From contig CASESJ010000004.1 in assembly GCA_949290575.1 (NCBI GenBank), forward strand, positions 48,981 to 112,980: DNA of 64,000 nucleotides, written 5' to 3'. The position numbers and the translations under genes were made by a program. Source of the DNA: an uncultured Clostridia bacterium. GTDB lineage: Bacteria; Bacillota; Clostridia; Christensenellales; Borkfalkiaceae. The notes beneath the pieces were generated by a model that was not told the DNA's origin, ran no database searches, and saw only the letters and a program-made list of their open reading frames with translations. This document shows, piece by piece, positions 1-7,161 of the stretch. Positions within the stretch are counted from its first letter, which is position 1. Each line of letters opens with the position of its first letter.

Positions 1-4
1 CCTT

Positions 5-2137
5 TTGTTATTTATCAGTTGCATTATCTGTGCGCTTGGATTTTCAGCATGTTCGTCAACCAATAAATACGGAAAAGAGGAAACCTATTATGACTTAAAC
101 AACGGCAATACCTTCTATTTCGACGGCAAAGGGAATTGCAATTACGCCGGTCTTGAATGTACATATGAAATCATGGATGATAATTATCGTATTTATTTCG
201 ACAAAACGGACAAAATGCTTATTTTTAAAAAAGTAAAAGATGGTGTTTTAATAGAAACGTTTAAGAATTTGAATTCATTTTTGAACGTACCCGTTCGTAG
301 CGGTTATATAAGCGGTAGCACAACAATAAATAATTCACTTGTCAATTATCATGAGGATGGTACATATGAAATGTATTTAGAGAATACACTTGTCGGAATT
401 GGAAATTACTATTTTAACGACGGTGTATTAATAACCGAGCAAACGTACGGAATGACAAGTAGCGGGTTTTGGCTTGAAGGTACATTATATTCTGCGGCTT
501 ATATAAATGAAGACACTGGAAAGTTATCAGGCGTAATATTGGCAAATCCTTCCTATTATCTGCAATGGCATTTTAATGATAACAATGATAATGAAGGCGA
601 CACGTCAACAAACACTCAGCATACGTTGACTTACGATTTGGATTATGACGGCTTAACCGTTACTGCAGAGCAAGTTGTAAAAGGCGAAATCGTAAATCTT
701 ATTACGCCCGAAAGAGCAGGCTACAAATTTTTAGGTTGGTATTACAACGGAAGTAAAATTGACAGCGGTGTTTGGGTATATGATTGCGATGTTACGCTCA
801 CGGCACATTGGGAAGCGATAAATTATTCTATTAAATATCATACAAATGGCGGGATATTGCCCGATTACTATTTAGAATCTTATACTGTATTAAGCGATTT
901 GCCGTACACGCTTCCCATCCCCATAAAGCAAGGGTTTAATTTTTTGGGTTGGTATGAGACATCTGACTTTTCCGGCGAACCAATAACAGACATACCAAAA
1001 AACAGTTTGCAAAATTATGTGTTATATGCGAAATATACCGATGAACAGTTATTGGAATTTGAACTTTCTTTTGACGAAACATATTATAGTGTTGTCGGCT
1101 ATAAGGGCTCGCCCCAATATATATCAATTCCAAAAGAAATAAACGGTTTGCCGGTAAAAGAAATAGCGGCTAAAGCATTTTCAGCGTGCGATAGTTTAAT
1201 TAATATATCTTTGCCCGACAGTGTAACAAGTATAGGTAATTGTGCGTTTTCTTATTGTTATTGGTTGACAAGTATAACTATACCCGACTGTGTAGCAGAA
1301 TTAGGTGAGTTCGCGTTTGAAGGTTGTAATAGATTGACGAATATAACTATTCCAACTAACGTAACAACTATTGGCCACGGTTTATTTTTGGGTTGCAGTA
1401 GTTTGATAAGCGTAACAATACCTGACAGTGTAACAAGTATTGGCGATTCGGCGTTTTCTTATTGCAGTAGTCTTACAAGCGTAACAATACCCAACAGTGT
1501 AACTAGCATCGGCAGATGGGCGTTTTCTGATTGCAGTAGTCTGACGAACATAACAATACCCGACAGTGTAACGGGTATTGGCGAGGGGGCGTTTTCTGAT
1601 TGCAGTAGTCTGACGAACATTACCATACCCGACAGTGTAACGAATATTGGCAGTTCGGCATTTCCAAATCATTTATACAATCGATATAGCGGGTGTTATT
1701 ATTTGCCGACAAAAAGCAGCGATTACGGCTTCTTATACGAACCGATAGATAAAGATACTATTGTAAACGTAAAAATACATACCGATTGCAAAATAATTAA
1801 TTATTCGGTATTTTCTAATTGTGACAACCTTACAAACGTAATTATGCCTGAAGGTGTAACAAAAATAGGCGATTACGCGTTTGCTTATTGTAGTAGTCTG
1901 ACTAGCGTAACAATTCCCGACAGTGTGACGAGTATCGGCAATTATACGTTTTATTATTGTGATAGCATGACAAGCGTATTTTATAAAGGTACTGCGGAGG
2001 ATTGGAACCATATAACACTTGGAGAATCCGCATTTATTCCGCAAAGTAAAATTTATTATTTCTCGGTCACAGAGCCTATAGATGGTGGAAACTATTGGCA
2101 TTACGATACAGACGAAACTACGCCTGTTATTTGGTGA
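5..2137 (+). CDS. Surface lipoprotein with Listeria-Bacteroides (InlB B-type) repeats and BspA-type leucine-rich repeats. It may be 5'-truncated by the window edge.
   Basis: Lipobox-like N-terminus LGFSAC. Two 'GY/FxFLGWY...LTAHWE/LYAKYT' repeats. Many 23-aa units 'IPDSVTSIGxxAFSxCSSLTSVT'. Confidence 0.8.
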   Translation: MLFISCIICALGFSACSSTNKYGKEETYYDLNNGNTFYFDGKGNCNYAGLECTYEIMDDNYRIYFDKTDKMLIFKKVKDGVLIETFKNLNSFLNVPVRSGYISGSTTINNSLVNYHEDGTYEMYLENTLVGIGNYYFNDGVLITEQTYGMTSSGFWLEGTLYSAAYINEDTGKLSGVILANPSYYLQWHFNDNNDNEGDTSTNTQHTLTYDLDYDGLTVTAEQVVKGEIVNLITPERAGYKFLGWYYNGSKIDSGVWVYDCDVTLTAHWEAINYSIKYHTNGGILPDYYLESYTVLSDLPYTLPIPIKQGFNFLGWYETSDFSGEPITDIPKNSLQNYVLYAKYTDEQLLEFELSFDETYYSVVGYKGSPQYISIPKEINGLPVKEIAAKAFSACDSLINISLPDSVTSIGNCAFSYCYWLTSITIPDCVAELGEFAFEGCNRLTNITIPTNVTTIGHGLFLGCSSLISVTIPDSVTSIGDSAFSYCSSLTSVTIPNSVTSIGRWAFSDCSSLTNITIPDSVTGIGEGAFSDCSSLTNITIPDSVTNIGSSAFPNHLYNRYSGCYYLPTKSSDYGFLYEPIDKDTIVNVKIHTDCKIINYSVFSNCDNLTNVIMPEGVTKIGDYAFAYCSSLTSVTIPDSVTSIGNYTFYYCDSMTSVFYKGTAEDWNHITLGESAFIPQSKIYYFSVTEPIDGGNYWHYDTDETTPVIW
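1451..1657. repeat. Three tandem 69-bp units (each one 23-aa LRR unit) inside the LRR gene
   Basis: Units start at 1451, 1520 and 1589, each beginning gcgttttct(t/g)attgcagtagtct. The last two are nearly identical over the first ~60 nt. Confidence 0.8.
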
Positions 2138-2147
2138 AAATAAGATT

Positions 2148-2447
2148 ATGGAGGCAATTATGAAACCTGAAAATGCAATTTGTCCGCGTAAAAGAATAAA
2201 AGATTTGAAAATTCTCTATACTGACGAAACAGACAATTTTTCTATTGCTTCGTTACTTTGGGATAAAAACAAGCGCATTGCTATACGTTGGAATGGCAGC
2301 GGAGATAGTTTAGGCTATCCTCAATCACGCGGGAAAGCTACTTGGTTTATTTTGCCGCAAAAGGTTGCTTTAGCGTTTGCTTTGTCTATTGGCAATGCAG
2401 AAATGGCACAAGTAATAAAAGCAACAACATCTACCCCGTTAATGTAG
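2148..2447 (+). CDS. Hypothetical small protein (99 aa; alternative start at 2160 behind GGAGG)
   Basis: Open frame directly after the LRR gene, with GGAGG at 2150-2154 five nt before ATG 2160. I recognise no motif. Confidence 0.4.
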   Translation: MEAIMKPENAICPRKRIKDLKILYTDETDNFSIASLLWDKNKRIAIRWNGSGDSLGYPQSRGKATWFILPQKVALAFALSIGNAEMAQVIKATTSTPLM

Positions 2448-2508
2448 TCGATGCTACTATTAAAATGATATTTAAGTAGCGAAACCCAAACAAACGTTTG
2501 TATTTCTA

Positions 2509-2537
2509 TTGACAGTAGCAACTTTATATGATATAAT
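2509..2537 (+). promoter_or_regulatory. Perfect sigma-70/sigA consensus promoter (TTGACA-17-TATAAT) preceded by the 12-nt palindrome ACAAACGTTTGT
   Basis: TTGACA 2509-2514, 17-nt spacer, TATAAT 2532-2537, palindrome 2490-2501. No convincing ORF lies downstream. Confidence 0.5.
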
Positions 2538-3365
2538 GCGAGAGTACAGGCGGATATGTTGCCTGTGCTCTTTTGCTGTGCATTTAATGTTGTACAGGTA
2601 CTCCTCTTCTACGAGAGGGTTAGCGCAGATATGACTGCGCCGCAGAGCGCAATGCTCTGTATGGATTTCAGCGCAAAATGCGCTGCACCCGAGCCGTCTG
2701 AAAGACGCGCCATAACGGGGTTTTGTAAGCGTACAATTTTTTGCTTAAATCCCGATAAATGGTCGTCTTTCTTCAAGCGAAGACAGACTTATTTTGTGTT
2801 ACAGTTTTTTACGAAATAAGTTGTTATCGCCTTTGTTTGGAAAAGATGTGCGATGGTAGGCTTTTAAGATGCCTTAAACTTTTGCCAAGCGGCGCGAAGC
2901 GACATTTGAGCAAAAGTTGCCGGTATCGCAATCGCAAAAATACTTTTTTGCGATTATTGTTGTACTCTTTTTTATGGAGTTAAGCCTTTTTATCTCACAT
3001 TTTTGGACGTGCCTTGATGGGCTTTTTCAGCGTACAAATTTTCAGATAACCGAGGAGAAAACAAAAGTTAATAAACCGAAAATTACATAGAATGGCTAAC
3101 CACCATAGAGCTTACAGCTAAACAAGGTTTTAAGTCGGTGATCGCGTTACAAGCATCAGCGGCTTTTTTGCGTTCTTTTTAGGCTATCGAACCCATGATT
3201 TTGCTCGTGGGTAATGATAAATAACAATCAAATCAGGAGGTAAAAAATGAACAAGCAAACGACAATCAGACCGCCATAAATCAGGCAAGCAAACGGAAAT
3301 TACAAAGCACTCAAAAGTCTTATTTCGGCAAGCAAACGTGAAGTGTTTTATAGATATTTCTTCCA

Positions 3366-3420
3366 CTTCGTGGGCTCGAAGTATAGCTCACTATACTTCG
3401 CAAGCGAAGTACCGTTCGCT
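3366..3420. other. Candidate oriT of the MobV relaxase (overlapping inverted repeats)
   Basis: CGAAGTATAG(3377-3386)-ctca-CTATACTTCG(3391-3400) is a perfect 10-bp IR. It overlaps CTTCG/CGAAG (3366-3381), ACTTCG/CGAAGT (3395-3410) and AGCGAA/TTCGCT (3403-3420). It sits 65-120 nt upstream of mob. Confidence 0.5.
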
Positions 3421-3483
3421 CTGCCGAGGGCTTTTAAAACAAAATAACGGGAGGTAAAAATTATAAGCTACTTAGTTTGTCAC

Positions 3484-4512
3484 ATGGAAAAATATCACAA
3501 GACGGATATTGCGCCCGTCGAACAGGAGAACGAGCGAGACGAAAATTATGTTGCCAACAATCCGCAGATAGACTGCACTCGTACCCGAAACAACTACAAC
3601 GTCATTAAGCGACAATGCTCCTACACTCAGCATATCAACAAAAGGATAGCGGACCTTGACTTGCCTACAAAAGTTCGCAAGGACGCAGTTCTAATGTGTT
3701 CGTTTGTCGTGGGTTCGGACAGAGAGTTTTTCAAAAATCTGTCGGCGCGTGAACAGGAAAAATTTTTTGCAGACTGCACCCGCTTCTTTGCGGACAGATA
3801 CAGCGAAGAAAATATTATTTCCGCCGTAGTCCACATGGACGAAAGCACGCCGCACCTGCACTTAAATTTAATCCCGATTGCAGACGGCAGGCTCTGCGCC
3901 AAGCAACTGTTTAACCGCAAGGCGCTGCAAACCTTGCAGACAGACTTTCACGCTTTCGTGGGAAAGAAATGGAACTTACAGCGCGGCAAGGAAGGCAGCA
4001 CTGCCAAGCACCTTGACACTATGTCGTACAAGGTCAAAAAGATGAAAGACGAAGCCGTAGCCGCCGTATTGCAAGCATCCGACGCCGAAAGACGAAAAGA
4101 AGCCGCAGAGCAAAGCCAAGCCCACGCGGAACAAGTCACGCATGAGCTTGAGGAAAAGCGTGAGCAATTACAACGTGAAGTTGCTCCTCTTCAAGCCGCC
4201 GCGGACGCCGCACAGGAATACAATGCAGGAAAGAGAAAACCTAACAAGAGAGACGTGCCGGCACTTGCCGCCGAGAATGCAAGATTAAAACAAGAGCTCG
4301 AATACAGTATCAAAGACCAGCATGACGTCTTTCAGCTCTACCAGAAGACCGAACGCGAGCGGCTGTCGCTACAAGAGGACGCCAAGACTTTGAGAGAGCT
4401 ACGAGAGCAAGCGCCTGACAAGCTCAAAGAGGCGATTGCAACTGCTGAGCAGCGAAAGGCGGCAAAGCGCAACACTCCCTTCAAAAGTGCTGGCAATGGT
4501 TGGAGCAAGTAA
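3484..4512 (+). CDS. mob: MobV-family plasmid recombination/mobilisation relaxase (Mob_Pre)
   Basis: HxDExxPHxH motif 'VVHMDESTPHLHLNLIP' and an N-terminal relaxase region followed by a long coiled-coil, Glu/Ala/Lys-rich C-terminus. Confidence 0.9.
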   Translation: MEKYHKTDIAPVEQENERDENYVANNPQIDCTRTRNNYNVIKRQCSYTQHINKRIADLDLPTKVRKDAVLMCSFVVGSDREFFKNLSAREQEKFFADCTRFFADRYSEENIISAVVHMDESTPHLHLNLIPIADGRLCAKQLFNRKALQTLQTDFHAFVGKKWNLQRGKEGSTAKHLDTMSYKVKKMKDEAVAAVLQASDAERRKEAAEQSQAHAEQVTHELEEKREQLQREVAPLQAAADAAQEYNAGKRKPNKRDVPALAAENARLKQELEYSIKDQHDVFQLYQKTERERLSLQEDAKTLRELREQAPDKLKEAIATAEQRKAAKRNTPFKSAGNGWSK

Positions 4513-4558
4513 AACTGAATAACCGCTAAAAAGGAGGAATTTTTATCGAATAAAATTT

Positions 4559-4726
4559 ATGTCGAGAAGAAGGAAAAATGATACAGGGATACCCGATTAC
4601 ATAATTGATTCCCTTGCAAGGGCAATGTTGCCCGCCATTCAAGAATACCTTTCCACAGAAGAAGGACAACGCGAATTTGAAGAATGGCGAGCGCATAGAA
4701 ATTCACAACTTAATAACAAAACTTAA
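4559..4726 (+). CDS. Possible small ORF (55 aa, MSRRRKNDTGIPDYIIDSLARAMLPAIQEYLSTEEGQREFEEWRAHRNSQLNNKT)
   Basis: My own translation; it is below the ORF-track cutoff. The sequence looks helical and protein-like, but AGGAGG (4532-4537) is 21 nt from the ATG. Confidence 0.25.
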   Translation: MSRRRKNDTGIPDYIIDSLARAMLPAIQEYLSTEEGQREFEEWRAHRNSQLNNKT

Positions 4727-4862
4727 TATTTGTTCCCTTTAAAATGTACAGGGATAACCGTTAAATGTGTACGGTATATGCGAACCGCCGTGTGAGCGGT
4801 ATACAAATAGATTTACAGCCAGTCAAAAAGTTAAGCCGAGGGTTAAACCCACATAAACGGCA

Positions 4863-4901
4863 GGCGGTGGGTGCATTGCAATGCGCCCGCCGCCATTTTT
4901 G
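4863..4901 (+). terminator. Rho-independent terminator closing the mob transcription unit
   Basis: A 13-bp stem GGCGGTGGGTGCA/TGCGCCCGCCGCC (two G:U pairs, so specific to the plus strand) is followed by ATTTTTG. Confidence 0.7.
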
Positions 4902-4966
4902 TCAAAAAAATAAAAATATATGTGATTTAAATGTTTAACCTATGAAAAAGGTGTGTATTATATAAT

Positions 4967-5215
4967 AGCTAATACTCATGGTCGCATTATATTACCTCGC
5001 AAGGTTCGCGCATAGCGAATGGACCCTAATGGGTATTTCGTCGGGAGGAGTGCATGAAATCCAGACAGGTATTTAATTATTTCTACCTGTTCCTCTTGGG
5101 CGAGGGGCGCTTTGCGCCTCAGAAAAATTGATAATTACGATTCTAAACCATCCTGACATTACCGAAATTGTTTAATGGCATGGGCGAGGGTCTCAAGCTA
5201 ATTGAGATACTATTA
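4967..5215 (+). ncRNA. Candidate retron msr-msd-type structured leader RNA (boundaries unresolved)
   Basis: ORF-free stretch between the terminator and the SD of the 76-aa ORF, with TATAAT at 4961-4966. Hairpins at 5005-5019, 5023-5034, 5039-5102 (composite), 5104-5120 and 5191-5207. TGGGCGAGGG is duplicated at 5097-5106 and 5181-5190. Confidence 0.3.
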
Positions 5216-5235
5216 AACAAGGAGGTGTTAAACAA

Positions 5236-5466
5236 ATGTCAGCGAATAAAAATTTTGATAAGCATAACATTACTAATATTACTATCAATATTGGTAATGT
5301 CTATGTGCAAAACAATGTCTCTGCTACCAATGATTTACTTAAAAATGGTAGTGCTACTGAAAAATCAAGTTTTTATAATGTATTAGCTAGAATCGGTGGT
5401 TTTTTCAAAAGATTAGCAACAAAAATACTTTGTTTTATTCGCAATCTGTTGCTACTCTTGAACTAA
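5236..5466 (+). CDS. 76-aa protein of unknown function with a basic/hydrophobic C-terminal tail (candidate retron effector)
   Basis: AAGGAGG 5219-5225 lies 10 nt before the ATG. The C-terminus is FYNVLARIGGFFKRLATKILCFIRNLLLLLN. It sits directly upstream of the RT in the same orientation. Confidence 0.5.
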   Translation: MSANKNFDKHNITNITINIGNVYVQNNVSATNDLLKNGSATEKSSFYNVLARIGGFFKRLATKILCFIRNLLLLLN

Positions 5467-5507
5467 CATTATCAATTAATTTCTGATCAATAAATAAGTG
5501 ATAGCTT

Positions 5508-6473
5508 ATGAATTATAAATTATGCCCTCTGTACGGACTTAAATCCAAAAAAACGTTAAAAGAATTGCTAGGAATGGATACTCCTAGCTTTTTAACTATT
5601 AATGCCAAATCCATATCAGGTACAATAAAACCCAGAATTGACTACAAAAAGGGAAAGAGCAGATTAGTTGAGCCGCCGTATTACCAATTAAAACTAGCAC
5701 AAGCTAGATTATTAAAATATCTTCAAAAAATAGATTACGAGCCGTATGTTTTTTCTGGAATTAAGGGACGCACTGTAGCAGATAATGCTAGAATACATTG
5801 CGGTTACAAATATGTATATCAAACAGATTTGTCAAAATTTTTTCCGCATATAACCCGAAATAAGGTTTATTATTTCTTTTTAAAAAAAATGGCAATGTCA
5901 GAGGATGTATCCAAGATTTTGGCGGATATTTGCACGATTGATTATAAGTATGTAGACAATCAAAAATATAAAGAAGTATATGACTTTCTCATCTCTAATG
6001 GGCTCAAACCAAATACGCATTTAATGACAGGCTCTCCTGTAAGTTGCATTTTATCATATCTGGTAAACCTTGATATGTTTAATCTTATTTATCATAAAGG
6101 AATAAAAAATAATATAGCTATTAGTATTTACATAGACGATATAACCTTCTCATCAATCAACCCAATATCCAATAGTTTTATCTCATGTATAACTAAAACA
6201 TTAAAGCATTTTGGATATAAAATTTCTGCGCATAAATGTGAATATAATATACCGGGCAAAGTAAAGAAAATAACTGGCGTTATCATTGATAAAAACGGTG
6301 CAATGAAAGTTGCTAACCATATCAAATATCGTGTCCATTCAGGACTTAGCGCATTAAAACGATTTGAAAGCACTGATATGAGTAAATTGAAAGGCTATCT
6401 CAGTTTTAGCGCGATAATAGAGCCAAAATATGCAACAACACAAAAGCTGATTTATGAAAAATACCAAACATAA
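5508..6473 (+). CDS. Retron-type reverse transcriptase (stand-alone RT, 321 aa)
   Basis: Ordered motifs: RLVEPPYYQLKLAQ; ADNARIH (NAxxH); YQTDLSKFFPHI; TGSPVSCILSYLVNLDM; YIDDITFS (YxDD); GYKISAHK; KKITGVIID (VTG-type); KGYLSFS tail. No maturase, endonuclease or other fused domain. Confidence 0.85.
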   Translation: MNYKLCPLYGLKSKKTLKELLGMDTPSFLTINAKSISGTIKPRIDYKKGKSRLVEPPYYQLKLAQARLLKYLQKIDYEPYVFSGIKGRTVADNARIHCGYKYVYQTDLSKFFPHITRNKVYYFFLKKMAMSEDVSKILADICTIDYKYVDNQKYKEVYDFLISNGLKPNTHLMTGSPVSCILSYLVNLDMFNLIYHKGIKNNIAISIYIDDITFSSINPISNSFISCITKTLKHFGYKISAHKCEYNIPGKVKKITGVIIDKNGAMKVANHIKYRVHSGLSALKRFESTDMSKLKGYLSFSAIIEPKYATTQKLIYEKYQT

Positions 6474-6477
6474 AGTG

Positions 6478-6512
6478 AGGGATTGCTATTTACAGCAATC
6501 CCTTAAATTTTA
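6478..6512 (+). terminator. Intrinsic terminator after the RT gene
   Basis: 10-bp stem AGGGATTGCT/AGCAATCCCT with a 6-nt loop, followed by taaatttt (weak U-tract). Confidence 0.5.
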
Positions 6513-6530
6513 CTTACACTCACTTATAAT

Positions 6531-6578
6531 AAGAGAAAATCCGAACCATTCGCTGGATATCAGCAAATAATTCGGATT
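6531..6578 (-). terminator. Probable terminator of the tRNA operon
   Basis: AATCCGAA(6538-6545)/TTCGGATT(6571-6578) stem with an inner GCTG/CAGC stem. On the minus strand it is followed by TTTTCTCTT. The loop is large. Confidence 0.4.
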
Positions 6579-6587
6579 ATACCTCTT

Positions 6588-6663
6588 TGGTGCACCTTCA
6601 GGGACTCGAACCCTGGGCCCACTGATTAAGAGTCAGTTGCTCTACCAACTGAGCTAAAGGTGC
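6588..6663 (-). tRNA. tRNA-Lys (anticodon CTT)
   Basis: Manual cloverleaf. Acceptor GCACCTT/AAGGTGC plus A-CCA, anticodon arm ACTGA-CTCTTAA-TCAGT, T-arm CAGGG-TTCGAGT-CCCTG. Confidence 0.9.
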
Positions 6664-6697
6664 ATCTGTATTATTTACACTTGTGTGCGTTATGACA

Positions 6698-6773
6698 TGG
6701 TGATCCATCCGAGATTCGAACCCGGGACACCGTGATTAAAAGTCACGTGCTCTGCCGACTGAGCTAATGGACC
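6698..6773 (-). tRNA. tRNA-Lys (anticodon TTT)
   Basis: Acceptor GGTCCAT/ATGGATC plus A-CCA, anticodon arm CGTGA-CTTTTAA-TCACG, GTTCGAATC T-loop. Confidence 0.9.
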
Positions 6774-6782
6774 AGAATAATT

Positions 6783-6857
6783 TGGCTGGGGTGGCAGGAT
6801 TTGAACCTACGAATGCGGGAATCAAAATCCCGTGCCTTACCGCTTGGCGACACCCCA
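6783..6857 (-). tRNA. tRNA-Gln (anticodon TTG)
   Basis: Acceptor TGGGGTG/CACCCCA plus G-CCA, anticodon arm CGGGA-TTTTGAT-TCCCG. Confidence 0.9.
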
Positions 6858-6889
6858 ATAATTTTCGCGTGGGGGCGCTGTTTAATTTG

Positions 6890-6966
6890 TGGGGCGGGCG
6901 ACAAGTTTCGAACTTGCTACCTCCAGAGCCACAATCTGGCGCTCTACCGATTGAGCTACGCCCGCC
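6890..6966 (-). tRNA. tRNA-His (anticodon GTG) with encoded G-1
   Basis: 5' GGCGGGCG (extra G-1), discriminator C then CCA, anticodon arm CCAGA-TTGTGGC-TCTGG. Confidence 0.9.
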
Positions 6967-6978
6967 ATAAGTAGTTTG

Positions 6979-7055
6979 TGGTGCGCCTGGAGAGATTCGA
7001 ACCCCCGACACACGGCTTAGAAGGCCGTTGCTCTATCCTACTGAGCTACAGGCGC
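6979..7055 (-). tRNA. tRNA-Arg (anticodon TCT)
   Basis: Acceptor GCGCCTG/CAGGCGC plus A-CCA, anticodon arm ACGGC-CTTCTAA-GCCGT. The T-stem has two G:U pairs. Confidence 0.85.
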
Positions 7056-7087
7056 ATATCAGCATTGCGCCGCGAGCCTTATTTTAC

Positions 7088-7161
7088 TGGAGCGGGTGAT
7101 GGGAATCGAACCCACGCAACCAGCTTGGAAGGCTAGTGTTCTACCATTGAACTACACCCGC
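7088..7161 (-). tRNA. tRNA-Gly (anticodon TCC)
   Basis: Acceptor GCGGGTG/CACCCGC plus T-CCA, anticodon arm CTAGC-CTTCCAA-GCTGG. Confidence 0.9.

Follow-up and report, generated by a model that had tools for sequence, protein, structure and literature searches.

A candidate two-gene Type VI-clade retron without a helix-turn-helix gene in an uncultured Clostridia bacterium

Type VI retrons were described by Mestre et al. 2020 as clade-3 reverse transcriptases (RTs) linked to a 91-110-aa Cro/C1 helix-turn-helix (HTH) protein (cluster 2_1), with accessory proteins of 75-79 aa in some of the Type VI entries, and small proteins encoded between the non-coding RNA (ncRNA) and the RT of Type VI systems have already been noted as accessory proteins (PMC7736814). 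Here we analyse a stretch of 64,000 nucleotides from an uncultured Clostridia bacterium (GenBank assembly GCA_949290575.1, contig CASESJ010000004.1, positions 48,981 to 112,980, forward strand), referred to as the window at its full length, which contains a cassette resembling these systems: a structured leader, a gene for a 76-aa small protein (SP) and a gene for a 321-aa RT. No HTH gene accompanies them.

Two Type VI retrons have been studied, and both provide phage defence. In Retron-Vpa2 of Vibrio parahaemolyticus, the SP is the toxin; its gene and the msr-msd region share one 'hybrid RNA' of ~470 nt in which the Shine-Dalgarno sequence (SD) and the AUG are sequestered, multicopy single-stranded DNA (msDNA) is undetectable before phage triggers, SP translation needs msDNA, and the HTH protein represses reverse transcription, its loss being toxic (Zhang et al. 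2025, bioRxiv 10.1101/2025.10.22.683967). The authors of that study proposed that 7-nt direct repeats, located in the msd and in the loop of a riboregulator, mediate the action of the msDNA. In Retron-Sen3, the SP is instead produced constitutively and neutralised post-translationally by the HTH protein, which serves as both antitoxin and connector to the RT, and a long-range inverted repeat clamps the SP gene, with its second arm just past the stop codon (Garcia-Rodriguez et al. 2026, bioRxiv 10.64898/2026.04.27.721009). The same study reported an HTH gene in about 78% of 158 catalogued Type VI entries, the other 22% being without one.

The cassette in the window forms a unit on the + strand, bracketed by intrinsic terminators at 4863-6505, in which the leader, the 76-aa open reading frame (ORF) and the 321-aa RT ORF follow each other in this order:

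4863-4894, + strand: upstream intrinsic terminator (14-bp GC-rich stem and T run)
4934-4961, + strand: putative promoter (-35 TTTAAC at 4934-4939, 16-nt spacer, -10 TATTAT at 4956-4961)
4968-5490, + strand: candidate hybrid RNA (hyRNA), consisting of a non-coding part, the embedded SP gene and a 3' clamp (from the minimum free energy and consensus folds)
5236-5466, + strand: SP, 76-aa small protein and candidate toxin (from its SD, coding constraint, homologues beside the RT and a predicted helix)
5508-6473, + strand: retron RT of the Type VI clade, 321 aa, with a YIDD active site (from the ORF list, Pfam, PADLOC and alignment)
6476-6505, + strand: downstream intrinsic terminator (a terminator-like hairpin on either strand)

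The cassette thus laid out comprises two genes on ~1.6 kb, and we consider it highly likely to be a retron cassette of the Type VI clade with the SP as its effector. A first-pass annotation of the same DNA had already pointed to a self-contained retron-like module here. The two ORFs exist as it described them, both bracketing terminators were found, and the cassette does occupy the most AT-rich part of the window, the block 5001-6000 having the lowest guanine-plus-cytosine (GC) fraction (0.33, versus ~0.53 for the host). Terminator-like hairpin/T-run sites were in excess in the region (7, versus 1.1 +/- 1.1 among shuffles), and the upstream one insulates the cassette from the operon of a MobV-family relaxase gene. 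From a promoter-like block that is kept across six homologous loci in the alignment, we infer a promoter at 4934-4961 and a transcript start near 4968; a generic promoter scan did not return this promoter. The SP and RT genes are separated by 41 nt, and no ORF lies between the RT stop codon (6473) and the terminator and transfer RNA (tRNA) gene that follow.

Evidence for the nature of the cassette comes from the RT. Its translation holds all the motifs that the first-pass annotation had quoted (RLVEPPYYQLKLAQ, ADNARIH, YQTDLSKFFPHI, TGSPVSCILSYLVNLDM, YIDDITFS, GYKISAHK, KKITGVIID and KGYLSFS), and among 33 homologues the residues N93 and H97 of the NAxxH box, Y208, D210 and D211 of YxDD, and T256 and G257 of the xTG box are all invariant. 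Pfam found RVT_1 as the single domain, as the first-pass annotation had stated, and no intron maturase, endonuclease or other extra domain. When compared with the PADLOC profiles, the RT matched RT_VI best (E 1.2e-65, 219.6 bits, residues 6-309 on positions 1-276 of the 279-position model), ~100 bits ahead of the runner-up RT_III-A (122 bits). Every one of the 25 listed PADLOC matches was to a model of retron RTs, and RT_IV and RT_V were not among these best 25; abortive-infection (Abi), UG/DRT, group II intron and diversity-generating retroelement (DGR) models were absent from the listed PADLOC and NCBIfam matches, and the retron models of NCBIfam matched the RT, yet below their cut-offs. Because of the lead of RT_VI and the invariant NAxxH, YxDD and xTG residues, the RT is, as judged from its sequence, a member of the Type VI retron group or of a lineage immediately beside it. 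This placement, by a profile comparison that the first-pass annotation had itself suggested, bears out its call of a retron-type module with the order ncRNA-effector-RT and the tiny protein as candidate effector, the SP being conserved beside the RT. Its comparison with Ec86 and with Sen2 (Type II-A), on the other hand, had picked the wrong neighbour.

For calibration, we used nine relatives from plasmids and phages (loci L094-L102), all of them HTH-linked, which came from a P2-like coliphage, Aeromonas, Staphylococcus, two Enterococcus, a Klebsiella phage, a Shewanella Mu-like phage, Burkholderia phage KS5 and Acinetobacter. Four of these references (coliphage, Aeromonas, Staphylococcus and E. 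casseliflavus) scored 263-351 bits on the RT_VI profile of PADLOC, while six relatives of the window RT scored 220-238 bits, again ~100 bits above the runner-up. The window RT is ~25-33% identical to HTH-linked Type VI RTs. In a neighbour-joining tree, HTH-less and HTH-linked RTs were split with a bootstrap of 60/100 and the window's own subgroup was recovered with 100/100; the tree contained no Type IV/V outgroup, and the placement in Type VI rests on the profiles. Overall, 425 relatives of the RT were present in the database at E <= 1e-10. Two sets of loci were followed further, namely close loci, which are the six closest RT relatives located on contigs (56-68% identity), and 80 distant genome loci from different bacterial species, with RTs 35-42% identical to that of the window. 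The latter belong almost exclusively to Clostridia, mostly from gut or rumen (Oscillospiraceae, Christensenellaceae, Faecalibacterium and so on).

The second gene of the cassette encodes the SP. As the first-pass annotation had noted, the gene is preceded by a consensus SD (AAGGAGGTG, 5219-5227), which serves as its ribosome binding site 8 nt before the ATG. The protein has a polar, Asn-rich N-terminus followed by a cationic C-terminal helix of amphipathic and hydrophobic character, for which residues 44-76 show a helical hydrophobic moment of 0.5-0.74 and a net charge of +5; the basic/hydrophobic tail ascribed to it in the first pass is hence recognisable, together with a helix predicted by AlphaFold2 at residues 31-75 (pLDDT, the predicted local distance difference test, of about 90 for residues 50-76, with low confidence for the N-terminal half). 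This structure prediction was run on two sequences because a word-indexed search with the SP returned only itself and one protein, 64% identical. No significant family was found for the SP in Pfam, PADLOC or NCBIfam, and a match to DUF6199 (13.9 bits) was below threshold and was disregarded.

That the SP nonetheless is a real gene can be read from its pattern of change and its linkage to the RT. Among the close loci, differences per codon position 1/2/3 were 0.30/0.25/0.40 and all insertions and deletions were multiples of three. An SP homologue ends 28-93 nt before the RT in five of the six close loci (L086, L089, L090, L092 and L093; that of L086, for example, reads ...KSSFLDVLARIGGFIKRLATKLIAFIRKVLLSLI), and ~78 of the 80 distant loci have a 60-95-aa ORF that ends at most 84 nt before the RT start or slightly overlaps it. 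The co-occurrence of the small ORF with the RT, which the first-pass annotation had considered worth checking, is therefore borne out at both distances. The distant small ORFs fall into several sequence families, with a polar N-terminus, often containing a motif of the xVVINxxGDNNxV type, and then a hydrophobic/cationic amphipathic C-terminus. Each of the nine reference loci has a 47-67-aa ORF, unannotated or 'hypothetical', 35-67 nt upstream of the HTH gene, whose product shares this design (polar basic N-terminus and an amphipathic C-terminus rich in Trp, Leu and Ile); these ORFs are, from their position and composition, probably the SP toxins of those loci. The first-pass annotation had concluded that the cassette contains no effector of a recognised class. 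This view is outdated, since tiny SPs are demonstrated toxins of Type VI retrons (10.1101/2025.10.22.683967; 10.64898/2026.04.27.721009) and the SP would accordingly be an effector of a recognised kind.

The closest RT homologue (P0002, 68% identical), at L085, stands apart from the other close loci. It is preceded by only the last ~90 nt of an SP gene (L085:4695-5000), with no leader, and a 410-aa gene running in the opposite direction truncates the SP gene. This copy has decayed or been re-purposed, leaving the RT on its own.

The most unusual point of the cassette, and one that the first-pass annotation missed, is the absence of the Type VI HTH gene. Pfam recognised no HTH family in any tested ORF on either strand between 4559 and 6473, and the window cassette shares the absence of an HTH gene with about 84 related Clostridia loci. 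All-against-all clustering of the ORFs within 2.5 kb of the RT at 87 loci yielded the small ORF only and no third conserved gene; XRE-type genes were present at just 5 of these 87 loci, in scattered positions. By comparison, a 93-108-aa ORF abuts or overlaps the RT start in all nine references, where it is annotated as HTH, XRE or transcriptional regulator in seven, and three of the four such ORFs that were scanned passed the Pfam cut-off for HTH_3. Two ORFs upstream in the window, of 55 aa (4559-4726) and 57 aa (4765-4938), were considered as hidden HTH genes and rejected, as neither matched Pfam; they adjoin only the window's own identical cassette (L082-L084) and not its homologues.

The HTH-less RTs have in common an insertion of ~25-28 aa between RT motifs, which lies at residues ~146-172 of the window RT (about 5943-6023, IDYKYVDNQKYKEVYDFLISNGLKPNTH) and is missing from eight of the nine reference HTH-linked RTs. 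Being common to these RTs, the insertion supports a single HTH-less lineage, and it hints at a compensation for the missing HTH. Among the proteobacterial reference RTs, the five from phages and Aeromonas have a basic N-terminal extension of ~15 aa instead.

The RNA of the cassette is structured well beyond its leader. Taken alone, the leader was weakly more structured than expected by chance (z = -1.85), whereas for 4968-5500 (533 nt, SP gene included) the minimum free energy had a z of -5.88, with none of 100 shuffles as stable. The ORF-free, hairpin-rich leader of the first-pass annotation consequently stands in part: the structure is strong only when the SP gene is included, and only at ~4939-5167 does the leader contain no listed ORF (of at least 40 aa), with a 72-aa ORF overlapping the rest. 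The latter, initiated by TTG at 5168-5386, lies in another frame and covers the riboregulator described below and the first two thirds of the SP gene; no family matches it, and it is likely to be spurious. The following elements make up the fold:

4971-5037, + strand: 5' domain, msr-like (stem 4971-4983/5022-5037 around hairpins 4994-5005 and 5006-5018)
5038-5103, + strand: msd-like arm (conserved base UCGUCGGGAGGA / UCCUCUUGGGCGA closing a hypervariable hairpin)
5097-5106, + strand: direct repeat copy 1, UGGGCGAGGG, 10 nt (at the 3' base of the msd-like arm)
5104-5120, + strand: small conserved hairpin GGGGCGC-UUU-GCGCCUC (seen by covariation)
5121-5133, + strand: 5' arm of a long-range inverted repeat, AGAAAAAUUGAUA (pairs with 5470-5483)
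5137-5145, + strand: leader segment pairing with SP coding sequence 5388-5397 (helix 8)
5151-5163, + strand: anti-AUG/anti-SD strand, in which UCCUGACAUU pairs with AAUGUCAGCGA (5235-5245, start codon included)
5168-5220, + strand: riboregulator stem-loop abutting the SD (stem 5168-5179/5209-5220, inner hairpin 5190-5208)
5181-5190, + strand: direct repeat copy 2, UGGGCGAGGG (in the internal loop of the riboregulator)
5470-5483, + strand: 3' arm of the long-range inverted repeat (begins 4 nt after the SP stop codon)

In the six-locus alignment, the transcript start near 4968 is kept and, apart from a single hypervariable stretch, the leader is highly conserved. RNAalifold, applied to 4968-5492 and its homologues (six sequences), returned 134 pairs with 95.3% of the cells paired. 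Twenty-one pairs were changed on both sides, compared with 9.4 +/- 2.1 in shuffled alignments (0/500) and 3-7 when the partners were slid by 1-3 columns. The base of the msd-like arm (5038-5049/5091-5103) covaries (columns 80/146 and 82/144), while its interior forms a hairpin of 66-84 nt in all six homologues (-17 to -25 kcal/mol), whose sequences differ and barely align. Such a variable interior on a conserved, covarying base is a hallmark of an msd, and we predict 5038-5120 (~83 nt) as the template for reverse transcription. Two pairs covary in the hairpin at 5104-5120 (CG to UA in three sequences, AU to GC in one). The helix that clamps the SP gene (5121-5133/5470-5483) has 97% of its cells paired and one double change, and helix 8 has double changes at four of its ten pairs. 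Around the start of the SP gene, the ACC of the strand 5151-5163 pairs with the GGU of the SD (5224-5226), and the helices formed there (9 and 10, anti-AUG/anti-SD) carry double changes at two pairs, in two and three sequences. Rfam at a permissive threshold left the leader unmatched and returned six tRNAs only, and DNA-pattern scans of metagenome and viral contigs for the leader motif CCTCGCAAGGTTC...GAATGGAC gave no match.

The same layout recurs in relatives with different sequences. In 13 non-redundant members of a large distant family (RTs ~40% identical), RNAalifold predicted 116 pairs, of which 34 were compensated. There, the riboregulator has a UUCCUUU that pairs directly with an AAGGAGG SD, with three pairs showing four double changes each; a clamp, UGUGCUGGUG/CACCAGCACA, follows immediately on the SP stop codon; a helix again connects leader and coding sequence; and the direct repeat is UGGGAAGUC. 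We also devised a positional test with two parts. The first asked for a repeat of >=8 nt with one copy in the msd region and another within the 70 nt ahead of the SD, the second for an inverted repeat of >=8 bp whose arms flank repeat copy 1 and the SP stop codon, respectively. Both were found together at 60 of 84 loci, versus 1% of shuffled controls, a count that is not a probability because the loci are related. These loci contain at least six distinct repeat sequences and several distinct clamp sequences, and it is this retention of the layout while the sequence changes that matters in the test.

A further motif touches the repeats. The 5' domain of the window contains an invariant CCUCGC at 4995-5000 that is complementary to both copies, and across subfamilies (L003, L012, L014, L024 and L005) the 5' motif complementary to both repeats changes with them. 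The sets of motif and repeat are CCUCGC/UGGGCGAGGG (window), CUCUCGC/AAGCGAGAGG, GACUUC/UGGGAAGUC, CUCCUGC/GUGCAGGAG and CGUUCCACA/UGUGGAACGC. A fraction of 0-0.15 of the shuffles reached the observed match, each case thus being modestly unlikely by chance. The motif and the repeats could form a stem like a1/a2 or a three-way switch.

Taken as a whole, our favoured explanation, which we regard as reasonably probable, is that 4934-6505 is a self-contained two-gene retron of the Type VI clade without HTH. How it would work can be proposed by analogy with Vpa2. One promoter would give rise to a transcript of ~520 nt, whose 5' half would form the msr/msd-like domain with the hypervariable hairpin at 5038-5103 and whose 3' half would be the SP messenger RNA (mRNA), with SD and AUG locked in conserved helices and both ends of the SP gene clamped by the long-range helix 5121-5133/5470-5483. 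In uninfected cells, the SP would remain untranslated because of this locking and clamping. Upon infection, the RT would copy about 5038-5120 into single-stranded DNA, which would accumulate; the 5' part of this DNA, carrying the complement of repeat copy 1 (UGGGCGAGGG), would hybridise to copy 2 at 5181-5190 and open the riboregulator structure, allowing SP translation, and the cationic amphipathic/hydrophobic SP would then stop or kill the cell (abortive infection). For such a Vpa2-type switch without HTH, in which RT-made DNA derepresses SP translation, we judge the chances to be about even. More tentatively, and with somewhat less confidence, we envisage, for a large Clostridia lineage, a regulator-free retron in which the hybrid RNA alone would silence the toxin, DNA reverse-transcribed from part of the RNA would activate it in trans by refolding a different part, the 5' motif and the two direct repeats would act as a three-way switch and the RT insertion would replace the HTH.

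The analogy with Vpa2 has several components. Both systems have an RT of the RT_VI profile family and the order ncRNA, small protein, RT; in both, a structured hybrid RNA, about 470-520 nt long, encloses a small toxin gene (a putative one in the window), whose SD and AUG are sequestered and whose 3' end folds back to pair with the msr/msd arm. Both also have short direct repeats, with one copy at the msd and the other in the loop of the riboregulator. The C-terminal helix of the toxin is hydrophobic, and the predicted template of ~83 nt compares with the 86-nt msDNA of Vpa2. The window cassette differs from Vpa2 in that it has no HTH gene, its RT has the ~25-aa insertion, its SP is longer (76 versus 55 aa) with an Asn-rich N-terminal part and no sequence similarity, its repeats are 10 instead of 7 nt long and its host, judging by those of the homologues, is a gut bacterium of the Clostridia. 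With the Sen3/cl2075 lineage, it shares an SP coding region within a conserved RNA scaffold, a sequestered SD, a long internal stem-loop whose centre is not conserved, and an SP whose amphipathic C-terminal helix has, in either case, a hydrophobic moment of about 0.6. However, Sen3 depends on the HTH protein that the window cassette is without, the SPs are unrelated in sequence, and the SP of Sen3 is constitutive, whereas the anti-SD/anti-AUG helices of the window argue for translational repression.

Retrons of Types IV and V, sister groups of Type VI in the RT phylogeny of the literature, are likewise comparable in having small or membrane-associated effectors, and phage functions in recombination and in RecBCD inhibition trigger them. 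They differ in the effector itself (a two-transmembrane or a cold-shock-domain protein), in the position that Type IV gives it downstream of or overlapping the RT, and in being described as making abundant msDNA. Type I toxins such as those of Hok/Sok and Fst are very small hydrophobic/cationic proteins whose translation is blocked by the folding of their own mRNA until it is refolded. The last step proposed here would resemble them, with SP translation blocked by mRNA folding until a nucleic-acid event. In the window cassette, by contrast, the activator would be reverse-transcribed DNA, where type I systems rely on the processing of RNA or on antisense RNA decay; the cassette also encodes an RT, and no antisense RNA gene is evident; moreover, no sequence test gives membership in this group.

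Several points weigh against our favoured explanation or parts of it. The consensus structure came from the same six sequences that were used to count the pairs. In the distant family, copy 1 of the repeat is partly within the closing stem and not in the loop. The positional test, which had been tuned on the window lineage, did not recover the layout in the nine HTH-bearing references, and the likeness of the candidate hyRNA to the known ones therefore rests on published descriptions and not on a shared model. The sequence singled out neither a priming guanosine, the branch G not being assignable from it, nor one a1/a2 stem, for which there are two candidates, the inverted repeat 5121-5133/5470-5483 and the 5' CCUCGC complementary to the repeats. 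As for the toxin, the window SP had no BLAST similarity to the SPs of the nine reference loci (E > 2), and it is predicted to consist of a beta-hairpin and one long helix, while published SPs, whose clusters include cl2075, cl2760, cl3272 and cl3897, are described with a two- or three-helix core. Finally, a system without HTH may follow neither the Vpa2 nor the Sen3 mechanism, because the HTH is the central regulator in both.

The best of the alternatives is a classical toxin-antitoxin pair, which we consider unlikely. Here, the SP would be made constitutively and neutralised by the RT-msDNA complex or by the RT, perhaps via its insertion, in place of the HTH antitoxin of Sen3-type systems, and phage factors that disturb the msDNA or the RT would free the toxin. 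RT-msDNA is the antitoxin in many other retron types, and the ~25-aa insertion of the HTH-less RTs (absent in eight of nine HTH-linked ones) could offer a new interaction surface. Furthermore, the SP of Sen3 is present in uninfected cells and neutralised post-translationally despite a conserved RNA scaffold, so that a conserved fold is no proof of translational control. Yet in the close as well as in the distant family, double changes have left the helices over SD and AUG paired, which is a signature of translational repression, and the repeat pair that the Vpa2 model needs keeps its position while its sequence changes; nothing speaks for a contact between RT and SP.

A second alternative concerns the genomic setting of the cassette, which lies at the end of a low-GC island (1-6590, GC 33-45% versus about 53%) between the following neighbours:

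3484-4512, + strand: MobV-family relaxase gene (context; from domain annotation)
6588-6663, - strand: tRNA-Lys(CTT) gene (context; first of six minus-strand tRNA genes, 6588-7161)

An identical block of Mob gene, retron and tRNA-Lys is present in L082, followed by unrelated DNA, with the identity stopping at the far (5') end of the tRNA gene. No attL-type repeat of the tRNA-Lys end was found within 1-6587. Further upstream on the island, a large surface-type protein with LRR_5 and Flg_new domains is encoded at 5-2137 (precomputed annotation of L081), including eight tandem copies of a 69-nt (23-aa) repeat at 1201-1978. Only short ORFs, on either strand, occupy the ~1 kb between a 121-aa ORF and the relaxase gene (2450-3480), a region that could be an origin of transfer (oriT) or contain remnants of island genes.

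Given this setting, the cassette might be an addiction module that mainly keeps the MobV element in the cell, with phage defence secondary or absent, an explanation that we regard as improbable. It would fit the location on a low-GC island with a MobV relaxase beside a tRNA gene, the occurrence of the same Mob-retron block in a second context, the fact that several plasmid-borne Type VI references have Hok/Gef, Fst or MazF toxin genes as neighbours, and the general resemblance of a small hydrophobic toxin with an mRNA-folding block to toxins of the Hok or Fst type. The link to MobV is nonetheless confined to the window's own element, whereas close homologues stand beside TIR/ThsB, restriction-modification and integrase genes: those of L086-L088 adjoin TIR/ThsB genes and a type I methylase (HsdM), that of L089 a methylase-NgoFVII-Z1 set and an integrase, and that of L091 a TIR-LRR protein, and these surroundings (L086-L089 and L091) are defence-island settings. 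Both studied Type VI retrons, in addition, defend against phage, and the RT and the hypervariable template hairpin would have no obvious role in addiction.

That the locus is no retron at all, with an RT of the Abi, UG/DRT, group II intron or DGR class or with a small ORF due to chance, is barely credible, for although Pfam sees only a generic RVT_1, the NCBIfam retron models stay below cut-off, the SP has two database matches and no family and Rfam is blank on the leader, all 25 listed PADLOC matches are to retron RTs with RT_VI ~100 bits ahead, the RT has no extra domain and invariant NAxxH and xTG boxes, and the small ORF shows a third-position excess, in-frame indels and retention in ~78 of 80 distant loci.

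The RT clade, the kind of effector and the RNA logic of this cassette have all been described between 2020 and 2026, and the cassette is not categorically new. It is a distinct and widespread variant without the component that is central to both published mechanisms. The studies on Vpa2 and Sen3 both centre on the HTH yet disagree on how the toxin is controlled, and a natural HTH-less lineage provides a clean test of whether RNA structure and reverse-transcribed DNA are enough for the switch. The lineage also extends Type VI-like retrons to bacteria that defence studies centred on E. coli cover poorly, and its two-gene cassette of ~1.6 kb is a possible DNA-responsive translational switch. If it were a classical toxin-antitoxin pair instead, it would simply be one more relative of Type VI. 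If the regulator-free reading were true, DNA-triggered riboregulation would be the ancestral and sufficient core of Type VI immunity, to which the HTH would be an add-on.

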